Positions 5,338-51,513 of a DNA stretch of 62,254 bases are shown in pieces. The notes below the pieces were generated by a model. The model saw only the letters and a list, made by a program, of their open reading frames with translations. It was not told where the DNA came from and searched no databases. The position numbers and the translations under genes were made by a program. Within the stretch, counting starts at the first letter, position 1. The number at the start of each line of letters is the position of its first letter. Source of the stretch: Candidatus Ghiorseimicrobium undicola (GTDB lineage Bacteria; Omnitrophota; Gorgyraeia; Ghiorseimicrobiales; Ghiorseimicrobiaceae); the NCBI GenBank assembly GCA_002796125.1, contig PCWA01000015.1, positions 11,650 to 73,903 on the forward strand. The letters run 5' to 3'.

Positions 5338-5373
5338 ATTACACAAAACAAGCAATGCTTGTTTTGTGTAATT
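5337..5373. repeat. 37-bp palindrome upstream of the transposase (REP-like)
   Basis: aattacacaaaacaagca-a-tgcttgttttgtgtaatt: perfect 18-bp arms with a 1-nt centre. Confidence 0.95.
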
Positions 5374-5383
5374 GGTGAATAGT

Positions 5384-6301
5384 ATGGATATAGAGAAACT
5401 GGTTGAGCAGGGGAAAGTCAAACGGATATTTCGGGCGCGCAATAAGATATCGTATTCAGGCGCTTGCTGCCATATAACTCAACGCGCTCCCGGCAGGGAG
5501 CTTTTATTTGTGGATGATAGGGATTATTTATATATGCTGCATTTATTGAAAACTAAATCCAAGAAATTTAATTTTCAGGTTTATTCCTTCGCGCTTTTAC
5601 CAAACCATTTTCATCTCCAAATATGTTTAGGTAAGGATAATTTATCGGCAGCCATAAAGAATATTTGTGAGACGTACGCGAAAATGTTTAATAAGAAATA
5701 TAGCCGCAAAGGGCATGTTTTTTGCGGCGCTTTCCGGCAGGCTTTATGTTTTGACGATGTTTATCTATTGGCCACCTCTTTATATATTCATCTTAATCCG
5801 GTAAGGGCAAGGCTCGTAGATAAGCCGGGAAAATATAGATGGTCATCATGCCGTCTTTATGTTAAACCGCAAACCGCTCCGGCATTTGTAAATCACGAAT
5901 TTATTTTAAAAACTTTGGACGACGATATCACTCGGGCTCAGAACGCCTATAGTCAGATTCTAAACAGATCTATTTTGATAACTGCGGAAGAAATTTGGAA
6001 TCATCGTAAAGCCATTGAAGACTTTACCAATCGTTTATCAGGGTGTATTAAGGCTTTAATAAGCAGTAATAATGTTGGCTCGATTTCACATAGTTTATGG
6101 AAGGCGGATCTTGATAAAGTGGTGGAACGGGTTCGGAACAATAAACGAGCTATGGATTTGGATGATTTAAAGGAAAGAAAATATGCTATAGAGCAATTGC
6201 GCGCGAGGGGATACGCGATGGATGAGATAGCAAATAAGTTGAAATTAAGCCGCAAGACATTATATAATATACTAAAATTACACAAAACAAGCATTGCTTG
6301 A
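5384..6301 (+). mobile_element. REP-associated tyrosine (Y1/HUH) transposase-like protein with C-terminal HTH
   Basis: PNHFHL (HUH), YIHLNPVRA (catalytic Tyr-x-x-x-NP), GHVF, YRWSS; C-terminal GYAMDEIANKLKLSRKTLYNIL HTH. Start moved to ATG 5384 (track start 5372). Confidence 0.85.
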
Positions 6302-6310
6302 AATGTGTAA
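6276..6310. repeat. Second, degenerate copy of the palindrome overlapping the transposase stop codon
   Basis: aattacacaaaacaagca-t-tgcttg-aaat-gtgtaa: left arm identical to 5337-5354, right arm altered at the tttt tract. Confidence 0.9.
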
Positions 6311-8331: not shown

Positions 8332-9570
8332 ATGAGCTACTTAAAGAAAACCGACAAGGAAATTTATGAAATTATAAATAAGGAATGCAGGCGCCAGGAG
8401 CAGAATTTAGAGTTAATCGCTTCTGAGAATTTCGCCTCAAATGCCGTATTGGAGGCGCAGGGTTCATGCCTTACCAATAAGTATGCCGAAGGCTATCCCG
8501 ATAAGCGCTGGTATGACGGCTGTGAGTTTGTTGATGAGGCTGAATCTTTGGCTATTACGCGGGCAAAAAAACTTTTTGGCGCAGAGCATGTTAATGTACA
8601 GCCACATTCCGGCTCTTCCGCCAATATGGCGGTTTATTTCGCGGTGCTTAAACCCGGCGATACCATCCTAGCCCTGGATTTATCCGCCGGCGGGCATCTT
8701 ACGCATGGGCACAGGCATAATTTTTCCGGGCGCCTTTATAATGTGGTTTGTTATGGCGTAGACCCTAAAACAGAAACTTTCGACTACGATAAGATTCATG
8801 AGCTGGCGTTAAAACACAAGCCGAAAATGATTTTGGCCGGCGCATCCGCATATCCCCGGACAATGGATTTTAAAAAATTCAGGCAAATATGCGATACCGT
8901 AGGCGCTTATTTACTTGTGGATATGGCGCATATAGCAGGGCTTATCGCCTGCGGGCTTCACCCATCTCCGGTTCCGCACGCCGAATTTGTTACTTCTACG
9001 ACCCATAAAACATTGCGCGGCCCCCGTGCCGGTTTTATAATCTGCAAGAATAAATTTGCCAAGAAAATTGACATGCAGGTTTTTCCGGGAATACAGGGAG
9101 GGCCTCTGATGCACGTAATCGCGGCTAAAGCAGTGGCTTTCAAAGAAGCCTTAGCGCCGTCTTTTAAAAAATACCAGCAAAGTGTGCTTAACAATGCAAG
9201 GGCCATGTCCGAAAGCTTAAAGAAAGAAGGTTTTCGTATTGTTTCCGGAGGGACCGATACGCATCTTTTGCTTGTTGATTTGCGCGGCTTTAATATTACC
9301 GGCGCTGAGGCGGCGGCGGTTCTGGATAAAGCCAATATCACGGTTAATAAAAATCTTATTCCTTTTGACACTACGTCGCCTACGGTTACCAGCGGAATAC
9401 GCTTAGGCAGCGCCGCTGTTACTACACGCGGCATGGCAGAGAAACAAATGCAAAAGGTTGCGGAATTTATCAGCCGCGTGCTTAAAGCGAAGAATGATAA
9501 TAAAACCATAGAGCTGATCAAAAAAGAAGTTCTAAAATTAACCGCTAAATTTCCTCTTTACAAAAAATAG
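8332..9570 (+). CDS. glyA: Serine hydroxymethyltransferase
   Basis: [25 protein letters not shown] (PLP Lys). Start moved to ATG 8332. Confidence 0.97.
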
Positions 9571-25765: not shown

Positions 25766-25794
25766 TTTACAAAGCATAATCTTGACTGTATAAT
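25766..25794 (+). promoter_or_regulatory. Putative sigma70 promoter of hisG
   Basis: TTTACA-17-TATAAT. Confidence 0.55.
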
Positions 25795-25825
25795 AAATTC
25801 TCCCTCTTACGTTAACAAAGACATG

Positions 25826-25937
25826 CTCCGCTGCATAAACATTGAAAAATTATCGTAGAGAATTTTTCAATATTCCGCGGAGTTAATTCGCCCATACAAC
25901 TTACGTTCGCTTCGTTCCGTAAGTTGTGGGCCCATTA
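25826..25937 (+). repeat. Mosaic hairpin element: degenerate type-2 module plus type-1 module
   Basis: ttgaaaaatt-atcgtagag-aatttttcaa hairpin, then taattcgcccatacaacttacg...cgtaagttgtgggcccatta; same modules as at 34629 and 51148. Confidence 0.85.
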
Positions 25938-33911: not shown

Positions 33912-34631
33912 ATGGAAGAAATTATTCTTATGGTGGGTAAAAGAACTGAAATCGGCACTAAAGAAGCAAATCAGCTTAGGAAATCAGGATTTATCCCCGG
34001 AGTAGTTTACGGGGAGGCAAAATCAGAAGCAATAAAGATTTCCAGGTCTATATTGCTTAAATTCTTGCATGAACATAAAGGTGAAAACTTGATAATAAAT
34101 TTAAAAATTGATGAGGGGGATGCCAAGAAAGCAAAAAGCAGTACGGTGATGATTAAAGAAATACAGCTTGACCCGGTCAGCGATGAAATAATACACATCG
34201 ATTTTAATAGGATATCCATGACTAAAGCCATAACGGTTAAGGTTCCTGTTGAAGCCAAGGGCGAATCTATAGGCGTAAAAGCTGATGGCGGAGCGCTGGA
34301 ACATATTTTATGGGAACTTGAAATAGAATGCTTACCTAAAGATATACCTAATTCTATAACTATAGATGTAAGCCAGCTAAAGATCGGCGATGCAATACAC
34401 ATAAAGGATATCAAATTTCCTGAAGGCCTTAAAGTTAAGCATGAGCTAAACGCTATTGTTTTATCTATTGCTCCTCCTGCGAGAGAAGAGGTTCCCGCCG
34501 CCGGGGCAGAGGTACTTGCCGGAGAAGGCGAGGCTGAGCCGGAAGTAATTAAAGAGAAAAAGAAAGAGGAGGCGGCTAAAGAGCCTAAGGAAGCGGTAAA
34601 GGAACCTAAAGAAACAAAGGAAAGCAAATAA
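33912..34631 (+). CDS. rplY: 50S ribosomal protein bL25 (CTC long form)
   Basis: IPGVVYG, QLDPV, HIDF, GGALEH, CLPKDIP, acidic tail. Confidence 0.95.
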   Translation: MEEIILMVGKRTEIGTKEANQLRKSGFIPGVVYGEAKSEAIKISRSILLKFLHEHKGENLIINLKIDEGDAKKAKSSTVMIKEIQLDPVSDEIIHIDFNRISMTKAITVKVPVEAKGESIGVKADGGALEHILWELEIECLPKDIPNSITIDVSQLKIGDAIHIKDIKFPEGLKVKHELNAIVLSIAPPAREEVPAAGAEVLAGEGEAEPEVIKEKKKEEAAKEPKEAVKEPKETKESK

Positions 34632-34873
34632 TTCGCACTTATCCGCCTACGGCGGATGTGCTTATTTCCCGATGGCTAAACACTGCGTAGATTTCTTACG
34701 AAATCTACTTGTAGCCATCGGAATAATTCGCGCCTATCCGCCTACGACGGATGCGCTCATTTCCCTCGCCTATACGCTTGTAAATTTCTGGTGAAATTTA
34801 CTGCCCAGGCTTCGGGATTAATTCGGCCATACAACTTACGTCGGCTTCGCCTCCGTAAGTTGTGGCCTCATTA
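34629..34873 (+). repeat. Mosaic array of alternating hairpin modules (1-2-1-2-1)
   Basis: Type 1 at 34629-34666, 34724-34761, 34819-34873; type 2 at 34667-34723, 34762-34817. Confidence 0.9.
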
Positions 34874-34874
34874 T

Positions 34875-35456
34875 ATGAAGCTAATAGTTGGCTTGGGCAA
34901 CCCGGGTTATAAATATGAAAATAGCTGGCATAACTTGGGCAGGAAGGTAGTTAAGTGCTTAGCCAGAGATTTAAAATGTTCTTTTAAAAGAGTAGAAAAC
35001 TTAGAGAGTTTTATTGCAAAAACAGAATATAAAGGAGAAAAAGTTTTGTTGGCATTACCGGACAGATTTATGAATTTATCCGGCAGGGCCGTTAGAATTA
35101 TAAGTGAGAAAAAAAATATTCAGCTCTGCGATATGCTTATAGTTTTTGATGATATAGATATCAATTTTGGCGCCATAAAGATTAAGCATGGTGGTGCGAG
35201 CGCAGGCCACAGAGGCGTCGAATCCATTATAGAAAGGTTGGGTTCGTCCTGCTTTAGCCGCCTGCGGATAGGAATAAAGACTCAAAAATCCGGGGATAAA
35301 AAAGCCTTGTTGAGTGATTACGTATTATCTAATCTTGACTCTCAGGAGAGGGATAAATTCAAAGATATATCCGGGAATTCAATCGAGTGTATAAAAATCT
35401 GGATTACCGGCGGAGTTAAAAAAGCGATGAATGATTTTAATAAAAAAATTCACTAA
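34875..35456 (+). CDS. pth: Peptidyl-tRNA hydrolase
   Basis: MKLIVGLGNPG, HNLG, FMNLSG, GHRGVES, RLRIGI. Start moved to ATG 34875; the track extension reads through the repeat. Confidence 0.95.
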   Translation: MKLIVGLGNPGYKYENSWHNLGRKVVKCLARDLKCSFKRVENLESFIAKTEYKGEKVLLALPDRFMNLSGRAVRIISEKKNIQLCDMLIVFDDIDINFGAIKIKHGGASAGHRGVESIIERLGSSCFSRLRIGIKTQKSGDKKALLSDYVLSNLDSQERDKFKDISGNSIECIKIWITGGVKKAMNDFNKKIH

Positions 35457-45059: not shown

Positions 45060-45878
45060 ATGGAAAAAAACACATTCAAAAAAATTGGCCTTATAGCCGG
45101 TTCCGGCCGCTTCCCTTTATTGTTTTCGCAAGAGGCGAAAAAAAACGGCGTAAGTGTCGTGGCTATAGCGGTAAAAGGCGATACCTGTAATAAGCTCAAT
45201 CGCTGCGTTGATAAAATTATCTGGCTTAAAATTTCTGAATTCAAGAGAATATTCGATATTTTTAAAAGCGAAAATATAGATAAGGCGGCCATGGCAGGTC
45301 AAATTAGCCCGAGGCGCCTTTTTGACAAAAGGAATAATTTTGGCCCGGAATTAAAAAAGTTACTAGAACGTATTAGGGATAAAAAAGCTGATACTATTTT
45401 TTCCGCTGTTGCCGAAGAATTGAATAGCCATGGCATAGAGGTAATAAGTTCGCTTCTTTTTCTTTCAGAATATATACCGCAAAAGTCAGTATTGACAAAG
45501 CGTAAGCCTGTCGATTCACAGTGGCAGGACATATATTTCGGGCTGGATATTGCTAAAAAAATAGCGGGTTTGGATATAGGCCAGACGGTTGTTGTTAAGC
45601 AGAAAGCGGTTCTTGCTGTTGAAGCGCTGGAGGGGACGGATGTAACTATAGCCAGAGGGGGCTTGATTGGGCGCGGCAATTCCACTGTTATTAAAGTGAG
45701 CAAGCCGAATCAGGATATGCGTTTTGATGTTCCCGTTGTGGGCCTTAAGACTATGCGTAGGCTATCGGCTTCAGGGATAAATTGCCTGGCGCTCGAAGCA
45801 GGCAGAACCATTATTTTGGATAAAAAGGAAGTAATAAGTTTTGCCGACAAAAAAGGTATTATAATTGCCGCTGTATAA
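45060..45878 (+). CDS. lpxI: UDP-2,3-diacylglucosamine hydrolase LpxI
   Basis: GLIAGSGRFP, DIGQTVVV, EALEGTD, QDMRFDVPVVG. Start at ATG 45060. Confidence 0.93.
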   Translation: MEKNTFKKIGLIAGSGRFPLLFSQEAKKNGVSVVAIAVKGDTCNKLNRCVDKIIWLKISEFKRIFDIFKSENIDKAAMAGQISPRRLFDKRNNFGPELKKLLERIRDKKADTIFSAVAEELNSHGIEVISSLLFLSEYIPQKSVLTKRKPVDSQWQDIYFGLDIAKKIAGLDIGQTVVVKQKAVLAVEALEGTDVTIARGGLIGRGNSTVIKVSKPNQDMRFDVPVVGLKTMRRLSASGINCLALEAGRTIILDKKEVISFADKKGIIIAAV

Positions 45879-45911
45879 TTCGCCCATATCTCGCCGCAGG
45901 CGGATGGATCC
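45876..45911 (+). repeat. Solitary type-1 hairpin module beginning in the lpxI stop codon
   Basis: taattcgcccatatctcgccgcaggcggatggatcc; closely similar to the reverse complement of 51475-51513. Confidence 0.8.
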
Positions 45912-45925
45912 AGTAATTTAAAAAC

Positions 45926-46645
45926 ATGAAGTACATATACGGACCTGTTAAATCCAGGCGCCTTGGGCTTTCCCTTGGGATATCTTTGGTGCCTTATAAG
46001 ATGTGCAATCTGGATTGCATATATTGCCAGCTGGGGCCGACGGCAAAACGCACGCTGAAAAGAAAACAATATATTAAGATAAAAGATATTATAAGCGAGC
46101 TAAGCGAATTTATCAATTCAGCGGATTTTAAGAATATGAATATCGATTATATAAGCCTTTCAGGTACAGGTGAACCTTTATTGAATTCAAAAATAGATGT
46201 TTTAATAGATGAAATAAAAAAACTTAGCACTATACCGATTGCTTTGATCACTAATGCGTCTTTGTTTAAAGAGAAGCGCATACGAGATAGTATTTTGGGT
46301 GTCGATTTGATTATGCCTTCTTTGGATGCCATAGATAATGAGACATTTAAAGCTATTGACAGGCCGGCTAAAGGGTTATGCATAGAGGATATCATAAAAG
46401 GCCTGGTTAATTTAAGGAATGAATTTGGCGGCAAGATCTTTCTGGAGATAATGATCGTCAAGGGAGTCAATGATAATCTTAGTTATTTCCAGGAGTTTAA
46501 ACATGTTATCGCAAGAATCGACCCCGATAAGGTGCATCTTAATGTCCCCAAAAGGCATACATCGGAAGCGGGGGTTTCTGTCCCCGATAGAGAAGTATTA
46601 AAAAAAATATGTAAAATTTTAGGCGATAAATGCGAAATAATATAA
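45926..46645 (+). CDS. Radical SAM protein (COG0731-like)
   Basis: YGPVKSRRLGLSLGI, CNLDCIYC, SGTGEP. Confidence 0.88.
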   Translation: MKYIYGPVKSRRLGLSLGISLVPYKMCNLDCIYCQLGPTAKRTLKRKQYIKIKDIISELSEFINSADFKNMNIDYISLSGTGEPLLNSKIDVLIDEIKKLSTIPIALITNASLFKEKRIRDSILGVDLIMPSLDAIDNETFKAIDRPAKGLCIEDIIKGLVNLRNEFGGKIFLEIMIVKGVNDNLSYFQEFKHVIARIDPDKVHLNVPKRHTSEAGVSVPDREVLKKICKILGDKCEII

Positions 46646-50052: not shown

Positions 50053-51146
50053 ACAAGCATAGTAAGGATTGTGCCTAGCAGGCCGAATATGATATTTGGT
50101 ATCCACATGGCAAGTTCCGGCATGGGGTATCCATGCAGGCCAAGGTATTTCGCCAGGGCGCCTGCCCCCAGGATTAATAGGTAGTATATTCCAAAAATAA
50201 CAAAACCCAAGCCTAAATTTACGGATTTTAACCTTTGCTTGGCAATCATGCTTAAAGGACAGCCGATTAAAGCCAGGATCAGGCAGGCGAACGCGAGCGA
50301 GATCTTTGTTTGTATTTCTATGGAAAGCGGGCTATAGTCCATATCTGATTTAGCAAGGCGCCTGATTTCCTCATTAAGTTCTTTAAGTGTCATGTCTTTT
50401 GGTTTTTTAACCGTTTTACCATTGGTGGGTTTTGCGACATTTAAGTTTATAAAGTATGTTTTGAAGTTCAATTTATAAAACATATTAGGATCATTCGGGT
50501 TGGGTTCGTCGCTGGAACCGTCGATAAGCTTTAATTTGATTATTCCCTGTTCCGGCAAAGATATAAATTCCCCTTTTTTGGCAATAATTGTGCGCGCGGG
50601 CTTGCCGGGCCCTTGAGGTTCGTATATGCGTATATTTTCCAATTTATTGCCTTCGATTTTGTAAATAAACAATATATATTTTTGGAATGAATCAATAAAT
50701 GTCCCCGCCTCAAGCGTAGCCGTAGGGTTTTTGAAGCCTATATCAAGCATGGCCCTTCGCTTTTCAAAATTTGCTTTAGGCATAATAGTCGTGTTGAATA
50801 TTACCATAAAAAGGCTGAACATCAGCCCGAGGGTTATTACCGGCATGACGATATGCATAAGATTTATCCCCGCCGCTTTTATCGCCGTTATCTCGTTATC
50901 AGATGAAATTCTACCCATAGACCAGAGAACGCTTGTAAATATAGCCAAGGGGAGTATGAAGCTTAAGGGGTAGAATAAGGAGTAGAAAAACAGTTTACCT
51001 ACCGAGAAGACTTCAACGCCTTTATTTATTATCAGCGCCGTGTATTGAGTCAGGAAGACCAGAGAAAAAATAAACAACAAGACCGCAAGAGATAATATAA
51101 AAGGAGTTATAAATTCTTTTAATACATATTTACGCAGTATTTTCAT
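50040..51146 (-). CDS. lptF: LPS export ABC transporter permease LptF
   Basis: MKILRKY, DNEITAIKAAG; first of the paired permeases. Confidence 0.88.
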   Translation of the reverse strand: MKILRKYVLKEFITPFILSLAVLLFIFSLVFLTQYTALIINKGVEVFSVGKLFFYSLFYPLSFILPLAIFTSVLWSMGRISSDNEITAIKAAGINLMHIVMPVITLGLMFSLFMVIFNTTIMPKANFEKRRAMLDIGFKNPTATLEAGTFIDSFQKYILFIYKIEGNKLENIRIYEPQGPGKPARTIIAKKGEFISLPEQGIIKLKLIDGSSDEPNPNDPNMFYKLNFKTYFINLNVAKPTNGKTVKKPKDMTLKELNEEIRRLAKSDMDYSPLSIEIQTKISLAFACLILALIGCPLSMIAKQRLKSVNLGLGFVIFGIYYLLILGAGALAKYLGLHGYPMPELAMWIPNIIFGLLGTILTMLVCAF

Positions 51147-51147
51147 T

Positions 51148-51513
51148 TAATGAGGCCATAACTTATGGAGGCGGAGCCGGCATAAGTTATTTGGCCGAAT
51201 TATCCCGAAGCCTATCAGGGTAAAATTCGAAGAAATTTACCCTGATGTTTAGGCGAGGGATGCCGCTATCATCTAATGAGCGCATAACTTACGGAGTTCG
51301 AAGAACGACGTAAGTTATTTGCGCGAATTAATCTCCTCGCTTAAGCAAGGGGTAAATTCTCGAAGAGAATTTACCCCTTAAGCTTCGGAGTAGGTTAGAA
51401 CTTATTAAGCTTGAACCTACCCGCAGCCTATCGGGTAAATGTCGTAGAGATTTACCCGATGTTTAGGCAAGGGAAGGAGCGCATCCGCCTTGCGGCGAGA
51501 TAAGTGCGAATTA
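51148..51513 (-). repeat. Largest mosaic hairpin array: three type-1 and three type-2 modules with short spacers
   Basis: Type 1 at 51148-51202, 51274-51330, 51475-51513; type 2 at 51203-51260, 51332-51390 (inverted), 51420-51474. Confidence 0.9.

Follow-up and report, generated by a model that had tools for sequence, protein, structure and literature searches.

We analysed a 62,254-nt stretch (the window) of contig PCWA01000015.1 from Candidatus Ghiorseimicrobium undicola (Omnitrophota) and focused on the gap between rplY and pth; all coordinates are positions in this 62-kb window. Positions 34629–34873 (245 nt) hold five abutting hairpins of two module types, named T1 and T2, which run from stop codon to start codon in the order T1a-T2a-T1b-T2b-T1c. 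The rplY open reading frame (ORF) spans 33912–34631, and its TAA stop codon (34629–34631) forms the first three bases of T1a. At the other end, 1 nt separates the last base of T1c (34873) from the pth ATG at 34875–34877. The first-pass annotation had described an alternating 1-2-1-2-1 hairpin array that exactly fills this gap, and our analysis confirmed it from the TAA stop to 1 nt before the ATG. The five units, all in one orientation, are as follows.

34629 to 34666, plus strand: T1a, a short T1 (TAATTCG..TTATT); covariance model 16.2 bits; -16.3 kcal/mol, z -4.8
34667 to 34723, plus strand: T2a hairpin; outer stem TCCCGATGGCTA/TAGCCATCGGAA, inner stem GTAGATTTC/GAAATCTAC; -26.7 kcal/mol, z -7.7
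34724 to 34761, plus strand: T1b, a short T1 with 89% identity to T1a; covariance model 20.7 bits
34762 to 34818, plus strand: T2b hairpin; TCCC/GGGA, GCCT/AGGC, GTAAATTTC/GAAATTTAC; -20.4 kcal/mol, z -4.2
34819 to 34873, plus strand: T1c, a long T1 (TAATTCG..CTCATTA); covariance model 73.7 bits, E 1e-21

The borders of the units are shared within each type: T1 units read TAATTCG...(C/T)T(C/T)ATT(A) and T2 units TCCC...GG(G/A)A. Each unit folds alone (-11.6 to -26.7 kcal/mol, z -2.2 to -7.7). Folded in full, the array forms five hairpins (z = -8.4 for the plus strand, -10.9 for the minus strand), and 0 of 200 shuffles were as stable. Tandem Repeats Finder gave a period of 95 nt with 2.1 copies and 75% matches; together with the 89% likeness of T1a and T1b, this period points to local duplication. 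No promoter-like sites were found inside the array, so it is most likely transcribed together with rplY and pth. The region 34400–35000 contained one weak terminator-like site, equal to the shuffle mean of 1.0, and T1 and T2 run into the next module without a T-run and do not qualify as intrinsic terminators.

The 3' end of rplY just before the array (34567–34628) encodes a Lys/Glu/Pro-rich tail made of 21-nt and 9-nt tandem repeats (..KEPKEAVKEPKETKESK). On the other side, an open frame from a GTG at 34791, inside T2b, continues in frame into pth (34791–34874), and a gene caller could give pth a false N-terminal extension of 28 codons spanning T2b and T1c. The N-terminus of Pth is conserved (MKLIVGLGNPG) and begins at 34875.

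T1 is a hairpin of ∼55 nt with the consensus (T)TAAT-TC-G NN C-A N-[A Y AACTTA Y G]-tip-[C R TAAGTT R T]-G NN C-TC-ATTA(A). At its base is the invariant foot (T)TAAT/ATTA(A), followed by a 2x2 internal loop of fixed sequence TC/TC, the freely covarying 4-bp helix G-NN-C, an A-N bulge and a 10-bp inner helix (A-Y-AACTTA-Y-G / C-R-TAAGTT-R-T) that carries a tip of 3 to ∼110 nt. We collected 56 copies by a pattern in which the N, Y and R positions were free, i.e., pairing was not required. In these copies T5 and C6 of the mismatch never vary, and conservation of the T and C opposite them is 90% or higher; the conserved borders and fixed mismatch noted at first sight are therefore real, in the form of the TC/TC loop. 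Standard pairs make up 99.7% of the helix cells. The four variable pairs covary (84 double-change cells vs. 29 ± 6 in shuffles), and with the partners slid only 26–43% were paired. The 4-bp helix occurs in at least 10 complementary versions (CGC/GCG 31, CCC/GGG 16, GCC/GGC 12, CTC/GAG 4, CAC/GTG 4).

A covariance model built on long T1 (R1) found ∼150 true T1 copies in 0.7 Mb of Omnitrophota loci. In the alignment of 150 hits, double changes occur in 12 of 18 pairs (385 cells vs. 110), a count that leans towards structure because the alignment was fitted to the model. Two subtypes were distinguished. The short T1, represented by T1a and T1b, has the T1 foot and 4-bp helix with a different inner stem (ATCCGCC/GGCGGAT). 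In the sister subtype T1' (AAGTTCG...CTCACTT) the central C:G of the long helix is flipped, and its copies are usually reversed. UUCG tetraloops were considered as a mark of an RNA role and rejected: the T1 tips inspected are C-UUC-G triloops.

T2 is a hairpin of 55–60 nt closed by (A)YCCC/GGGR(T), and a hairpin closed in this way directly precedes 85 of 111 T1 copies. Several conserved T2 bodies recur between genomes; the type present in the window reads ..GCYTAARC..AAATTTC-loop-GAAATTT..TARGC... The outer helices of T2 covary, with one pair present as CG 15, UA 4, GC 3, and AU 2 times. RNAalifold on a MAFFT alignment recovered the outer helices alone, the inner stems being misaligned. The earlier observation that stems differ between copies and stay paired thus holds for T1 and for the outer helices of T2.

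The family extends well beyond this genome and is much larger and older than the window alone could reveal. The T1 5'-half pattern TAATTCGNNCANAYAACTTAYG matched more than 115 stretches in ∼77 assemblies of a species-representative genome collection. Among the matches listed, nearly all assemblies are labelled Omnitrophota or Omnitrophica, including the complete genome of Ca. Velamenicoccus archaeovorus, for which the matches listed include a single, atypical copy (L020, 133 nt). Loci from other genomes that were compared with the window carry L-numbers below. The T1-bearing metagenome-assembled genomes (MAGs) labelled Planctomycetales are mislabelled relatives; one of them (L026) is syntenic with, and 78.5% identical to, an Omnitrophota MAG (L046). 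The sole match outside the phylum among the matches listed, in Thiospirillum, lacks the 3' half and was set aside as a chance match. The family is thus not genome-specific; it runs through the Omnitrophota, and its primary sequence is conserved there. The members of this widespread, uncultured phylum are ultra-small bacteria that are probably predators or depend on a host. To our knowledge, gene expression in this phylum has not been studied so far.

No Rfam 15 family matched the window module sites, whether the gathering threshold or E ≤ 10 was applied. The sequences that reached gathering score in the Rfam search were tRNAs and FMN riboswitches alone, and one spurious 13.5-bit hit appeared at E ≤ 10. 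No match to the array was found in 5,426 E. coli genomes at E ≤ 0.01 (blastn, word size 11), in agreement with the initial impression that these sequences do not resemble enterobacterial repetitive extragenic palindromic (REP) elements. A described Rfam or REP relative, or missing covariation, had been named as grounds for discarding the idea of a new family; neither occurred. Carriage by viruses or plasmids was rejected: BLAST of the array against PLSDB plasmids gave no match, and T1 had 0 hits in viral contigs. We found no description of T1/T2-like repeats in the literature searched on Omnitrophota or REPs. T1 and T2 apparently form an undescribed, phylum-wide Omnitrophota family of structured intergenic repeats, and the rplY-pth array is best read as a local mosaic of two module types from this extragenic palindromic family.

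Nine T1 units lie at four sites within the 62 kb. Under R1, the four long window copies score 70–74 bits and the short ones 11–21 bits. The sites other than the rplY-pth gap are listed here.

25825 to 25883, plus strand: T2-like hairpin of the second array, in the hisG 5' leader
25884 to 25937, plus strand: long T1 of the second array (73.3 bits), ending 2 nt before the hisG ATG (25940)
45876 to 45915, plus strand: lone short T1, partly decayed, starting on the lpxI-like TAA stop codon; next ATG at 45926
51148 to 51513, minus strand: third array of six to seven modules, filling the gap from the comF-like to the lptF-like gene; long T1s of 72.0 and 70.6 bits
51513 to 51331, minus strand, first part of the third array: short T1 51513–51475 (on the comF-like TAA), T2 51474–51419, T2 variant 51418–51331
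51330 to 51148, minus strand, rest of the third array: long T1 51330–51274, 13-nt spacer, T2 51260–51203, long T1 51202–51148

A promoter-like TTTACA-17-TATAAT lies at 25766–25794, directly upstream of the hisG array, so the whole array would be in the 5' untranslated region. The comF-lptF array ends 1 nt before the lptF-like ATG at 51146, with all units direct. The lone copy at 45876–45915 scores 10.8 bits, which is not significant alone; it was recognised by its TAATTCG border and its stem CTCGCC/GGCGG. Thus 3 of 3 intercistronic arrays in the window begin on the upstream stop codon. Every window array is oriented as the genes it abuts. GC skew is positive over the entire window while the arrays occupy both strands, so their orientation follows transcription and not the replichore, and a replication-linked orientation was rejected. 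The sole spacer within the comF-lptF array (51261–51273, minus strand) reads CTCATTA-G-ATGATAGCGGCA and resembles an old T1-to-start-codon junction stranded by a later insertion of T2 and T1 downstream.

Placement relative to genes follows the same rule in the other genomes. Truly intragenic copies number 0 of 150 T1; the modules are purely intergenic and flush against stop and start codons. In 70 of 111 T1 copies, a co-oriented ORF of at least 70 codons starts within 45 nt of the T1 3' end, vs. 4 in the opposite sense. The T1-to-start distance in these 70 copies is bimodal: 32 starts lie at ≤6 nt (typically CTCATTAAATG), and the remainder are further away, 33 with a Shine-Dalgarno (SD)-like motif (typically CTCATTAAGGAGG..ATG) and 5 without one. 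At the upstream side, 22 of 53 arrays that follow a co-directional gene open with a T1-family module that supplies the stop codon of that gene as its first three bases. The stop-overlapping forms are TAAGTGAGG.. in 17 cases (2 or 3 of which in fact terminate at an overlapping TGA), TAATTCG.. in 4 and TAATGAG.. in 1. Such flush placement at stop and start codons suggests either that the modules insert at TAA/TTA or that they act in the mRNA.

By a crude count with uncurated starts, an SD-like motif (GGAG/GAGG/AGGA ≤20 nt upstream of the first ATG) was present before 16 of 58 long window ORFs. Starts without an SD are thus common in this genome and T1 need not stand in for one, which weakens the notion of T1 as an SD replacement. 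The window stop codons are TAA (31), TGA (14) and TAG (13), and many starts lie in an A/T-rich context. No 16S gene was found in the window or in any locus.

T1 copies in co-directional gaps are direct in 55 cases and reversed in 17; another 8 lie in divergent gaps and 1 in a convergent gap. Convergent gaps are rare in these genomes, and the near-absence of T1 from them consequently carries little weight.

Which gap the modules occupy differs between lineages, and in the syntenic regions of relatives the window's arrays are absent or found at other places. The lineage of the window is an isolated one. The five contigs that carry the rplY-pth locus are >99.8% identical, belong to the same strain and have identical arrays. 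The next Pth is 52% identical, and a Pth pattern scan of genome contigs gave no close relatives. The rplY-pth gap of more distant genomes is without an array: in L120 it measures 17 nt, in L060 36 nt, and in L121 it is occupied by an unrelated sequence of ∼144 nt. In L065 the leader of hisG likewise has no array. R1 found 0 T1 in the 20-kb syntenic stretch of L120 and 1, before spoVG, in that of L121, these two being the closest relatives. The 17-nt spacer of L120, the closest relative (9033–9055; TAATTTCGGTCTATTGCTAAATG), reads as two T1 feet (TAATT.CGG / TCTATT) without a body, either a deletion scar or a coincidence.

Several gaps resemble filled and empty insertion sites. At ribBA-ribH, L089 reads GAA TAA, then a reversed T1'-T2-T1..CTCAT composite, then TAAGGAGGAGGAAAATG, and L031 has no T1-family module there. 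Without the array and one TAA, the L089 sequence is an ordinary stop-SD-ATG junction. Upstream of ribBA, L031 carries the same three-module composite reversed, with TTA..TTA flanks, after the FMN riboswitch terminator and before the ATG, where L089 has just one module. In L012 and L023, solo T1 copies are flanked precisely by a TAA on each side and lie 2 nt from the next ATG. Other filled/empty gaps between distant relatives are L016/L045 and L043/L045. The three-module composites end in two inverted T1-family hairpins that are ∼65–75% alike, whereas the window arrays are direct. The TAA/TTA flanks of filled vs. empty sites look like insertion at TAA/TTA. Since every resident foot offers a new TAA, insertion of this kind would also explain the spacer-free arrays.

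Other features were seen next to modules in these loci. FMN riboswitch ribBA leaders with T1-family modules between aptamer/terminator and start codon were present in three species: three modules in L031 (1834–2233), one in L089 (5123–5336), and T2 plus T1 in L058 (600–1000, minus strand), where the aptamer-like sequence is below the Rfam gathering score. In L037 (5130–5880, minus strand) and L043 (3330–3760), T2 plus T1 lies next to a tRNA gene upstream of glmS, and on both sides of it the 3' end of the tRNA is repeated in direct orientation (26 nt twice in L037, a 14-nt piece four times in L043); the same gap is empty in L045. These repeats look like what remains of an integration at the tRNA. 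GIY-YIG genes were considered as a partner of the modules and discarded, being present in 5 of ∼120 loci and absent from the window. Small GIY-YIG ORFs of 80–116 aa are wedged into conserved operons in L121 (6551–6901, between spoVG and glmU), L124 (8429–8722, between atpA and atpG) and L037 (5519–5758, next to a tRNA). They resemble free-standing mobile nuclease genes, with no consistent link to T1.

In our judgment the most likely account, which we hold with modest confidence, is that the modules spread at the DNA level and that the hairpins are co-transcribed and either tolerated or used by the host. The modules would move to new sites and turn over at the DNA level, inserting at TAA/TTA. 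Such an insertion would regenerate the upstream stop codon and leave the downstream ribosome-binding site intact, and spacer-free arrays such as 1-2-1-2-1 could arise when modules insert again, or are duplicated, at the feet of resident units, which carry a TAA. The mobilising enzyme would be other than the local Y1 transposase described below. Transcribed with rplY and pth, the array would fold into stable hairpins, one after another. Judging from E. coli REPs and the intercistronic hairpins of phage T7, these may cap the upstream message and protect the downstream one at its 5' end, and by the same reasoning they could impinge on termination at the rplY stop codon and on initiation at the pth AUG. 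Selection would keep T1 intact after insertion, and if so the host probably tolerates or uses T1.

Several observations weigh against this account. The filled-vs.-empty pairs come from distant relatives and not from close strains. A T precedes TAAT in 96 of 111 T1 copies and an A follows ATTA in 103 of 111; the TAA..TAA flanks may thus just reflect a conserved 5-bp foot, TTAAT/ATTAA, and not a target duplication. No transposase or nuclease partner was found, and no parent insertion sequence with the same ends was seen in the window or the loci. Conservation of the primary sequence throughout the phylum is unusual for a selfish repeat. L026 and L046 are 78.5% identical over 7.5 kb, yet from the T2 start to the ATG their T2+T1 leader is identical at 141 of 141 positions, loops included (chance ∼0.785^141, ∼1e-15), and the promoter just upstream is also nearly identical. 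T1 recurs before the same genes in distant species (lptF, ilvB, ribH, ribBA, purE): among 86 genes downstream of T1 there are 8 homologous pairs, including window lptF/L056, against a rough chance expectation of ∼2. In four orthologous pairs (L019/L088, L011/L070, L053/L114, L090/L113), T1 stands before the same gene with the same 4-bp helix variant, while its tip has diverged and T2 has been replaced. The leader identity and this retention indicate that T1 is kept intact long after arriving at a site. To these is added the 55:17 direct bias, with an orientation that follows genes and not the replichore. Leader identity, same-gene recurrence and orientation bias are easier to reconcile with a function at the host level, probably in RNA, than with pure selfishness.

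An RNA punctuation or leader role is accordingly a serious rival and the more interesting of the two, though in our view the less likely. T1, with T2 as its companion, would be a dedicated cis-acting RNA signal of the Omnitrophota that punctuates mRNA, its foot and helix being recognised by a conserved factor, either an endoribonuclease or the ribosome; such a dedicated signal seems to us possible, on the unlikely side. Polycistronic RNA would be cut or protected at T1, giving the upstream message a 3' hairpin and leaving a leaderless or very-short-leader message downstream. In that case the repeats would serve gene expression and would not be mere passengers. Sequence conservation across the phylum with covariation is consistent with this role, as are the T1 3' ends 0–6 nt from a start codon (32) or directly before an SD-like motif (33 of 70), the beginning of arrays at the expected transcription start or at a stop codon, and an orientation set by transcription. 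The 141/141 leader of L026/L046 against its 78.5% background, the retention of T1 before orthologous genes while the adjoining T2 is swapped, and the single copy among 81 in a convergent gap point the same way.

Other results count against this role. In the model-fitted alignment the T1 sense strand has 35 G.U vs. 21 A.C, and for T2 we counted 99 G.U pairs in sense vs. 92 in antisense folds. Antisense strands fold slightly better, by +3.0 kcal/mol for T1 and +0.9 kcal/mol for T2, largely an effect of the TC/TC loop, which becomes GA/GA there. G.U and fold-energy asymmetry as proof of an RNA role was thus rejected, none favouring the sense strand; the absence of strand asymmetry is expected if pairing is maintained in DNA. 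Relatives do not consistently share the presence of T1 at a given gene. Modules are also found in reverse orientation (17 of the 72 in co-directional gaps) and on the upstream side of promoters, and starts without an SD are common in the genome anyway (16 of 58 have an SD-like motif). The more specific proposal, in which T1 is a phylum-specific mRNA punctuation signal and a conserved factor cuts or protects the transcript at foot and helix, appears to us rather doubtful. If true, T1 would be a common leader for a sizeable fraction of genes in T1-rich lineages, and its mobility would be a way of recruiting genes to that mode of expression.

We consider it improbable that T1 and T2 are classical REP elements, or bacterial interspersed mosaic elements (BIMEs), that depend for mobility and maintenance on a REP-associated tyrosine transposase (RAYT), which would bind them as single-stranded DNA hairpins. 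The modules are short imperfect palindromes, extragenic, multi-copy and arranged in mosaic clusters, and the window does contain a Y1_Tnp gene of a family common in Omnitrophota: ORF 5384–6301, between purD and purE, encodes a Y1_Tnp (RAYT/IS200-like) protein with a C-terminal helix-turn-helix. An association of the array with this RAYT had been put forward in the first-pass annotation and did not hold. At 5339–6310, a perfect 33-nt hairpin of its own, TTACACAAAACAAGC-AAT-GCTTGTTTTGTGTAA, stands on either side of the gene. Its homologues in other Omnitrophota, L123, L124 (inside the ATP synthase operon) and L125, are bracketed by long perfect hairpins of genome-specific sequence, and the T1 model gave, at the flanks of these genes, weak 18-bit hits to their own hairpins and nothing else. 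With unrelated hairpins at 4 of 4 loci, the RAYT-like gene was rejected as the partner of T1/T2, a result that covers this one RAYT family; as the local gene carries different hairpins, T1/T2 is not a REP/RAYT system. T1 also lacks the GTAG or CGTC tag, and the RAYT family occurs in Elusimicrobia, WOR-3 and others, whereas T1 is found only in Omnitrophota among the matches listed.

Least probable of all, and in our view very unlikely, is that T1 is an attC-type folded-DNA recombination site for a tyrosine recombinase: its foot, 2x2 unpaired spacer, bulged helix and tip of 3–110 nt parallel attC and it lies directly after stop codons and before the next ORF, but the foot TTAAT/ATTAA is unlike the core RYYYAAC/GTTRRRY, the flanking genes are syntenic housekeeping genes and not cassettes, several modules stand in tandem without intervening ORFs, and no integrase gene was seen nearby.

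Conservation of both sequence and structure across at least 77 species, with flush placement at stop and start codons, is unusual. T1/T2 would be either the most widely conserved REP-like family known to us or a shared mRNA leader or intercistronic signal. T1 marks transcribed intergenic regions, helps to place start codons and can explain assembly breaks. It also offers a concrete RNA or single-stranded DNA ligand for finding a protein partner, and its covariance model could directly become an Rfam-style family.

Comparison with known systems places the family as follows. Like attC sites, T1 is a structure-conserved hairpin between ORFs with a conserved foot, an unpaired spacer, a bulge and a variable tip; it differs in its foot (TTAATTCG / CTCATTAA vs. 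RYYYAAC / GTTRRRY) and in its syntenic, non-cassette flanks, has no sequence match to attC and shows no sign of recombination. Mycobacterial interspersed repetitive units (MIRUs) are translatable intercistronic tandem units whose ends overlap the flanking stop and start codons. The window array similarly consists of tandem units that exactly fill an operon gap and overlap the upstream stop codon, but its 95-nt period is not a multiple of three, its units measure 38, 57 and 55 nt, and they are hairpins and not translatable repeats. The RNase III hairpins of phage T7, which are irregular, contain internal loops and punctuate polycistronic RNA between cistrons, are alike in architecture; T1/T2 have no sequence match to them and show no sign of cleavage.

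Correia/NEMIS elements are miniature inverted-repeat transposable elements (MITEs) that duplicate TA on insertion and are cut by RNase III when transcribed. T1/T2 resemble MITEs in being non-coding, in the inverted-repeat architecture that some composites may represent (reversed T1'..direct T1), in insertion-like filled and empty sites, in short A/T-rich TAA/TTA flanks, and in co-transcription and folding into long hairpins. They differ in having no known parent insertion sequence, in stems that covary both inside one genome and from genome to genome (copies of MITEs decay), in their phylum-wide range, and in the direct orientation of the window arrays. In Neisseria, the mosaic elements known as NIMEs are dRS3 repeats alternating with RS units, and the pneumococcal BOX element has the form boxA-boxB(n)-boxC. 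NIMEs and BOX share with T1/T2 the modular intergenic array, the alternation of a conserved palindromic unit with variable units, and a module number that depends on the locus; their sequences are unrelated, they are genus-restricted, and they are not known to follow a stop/start-flush rule.

REPs and BIMEs come closest in kind: they too are short imperfect palindromes, extragenic and multi-copy, form mosaics of at least two unit types, are co-transcribed with flanking genes, and have stems kept paired by compensatory change. REPs sit mostly at the 3' ends of genes, whereas most T1 copies abut a start codon. In a statement of PMC12306157 that cites Liang et al. [quoted passage not shown] T1 and T2 carry no GTAG or CGTC tag and have the feet TTAAT..ATTAA (T1) and AYCCC..GGGRT (T2). 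The REPs of a BIME alternate in orientation, whereas the units of the rplY-pth and comF-lptF arrays are all direct; a partial parallel exists in other genomes, where a reversed T1' precedes a direct T1. The RAYT-like gene in the window is not flanked by T1/T2, and T1 sequence is conserved phylum-wide whereas that of REPs is conserved within a species or genus. The earlier proposal of a new BIME-like family under selection for structure therefore stands as to a new mosaic family with covariation, and fails as to several features that define REPs and BIMEs; on the best reading, T1/T2 is a family like BIME or NIME in kind.

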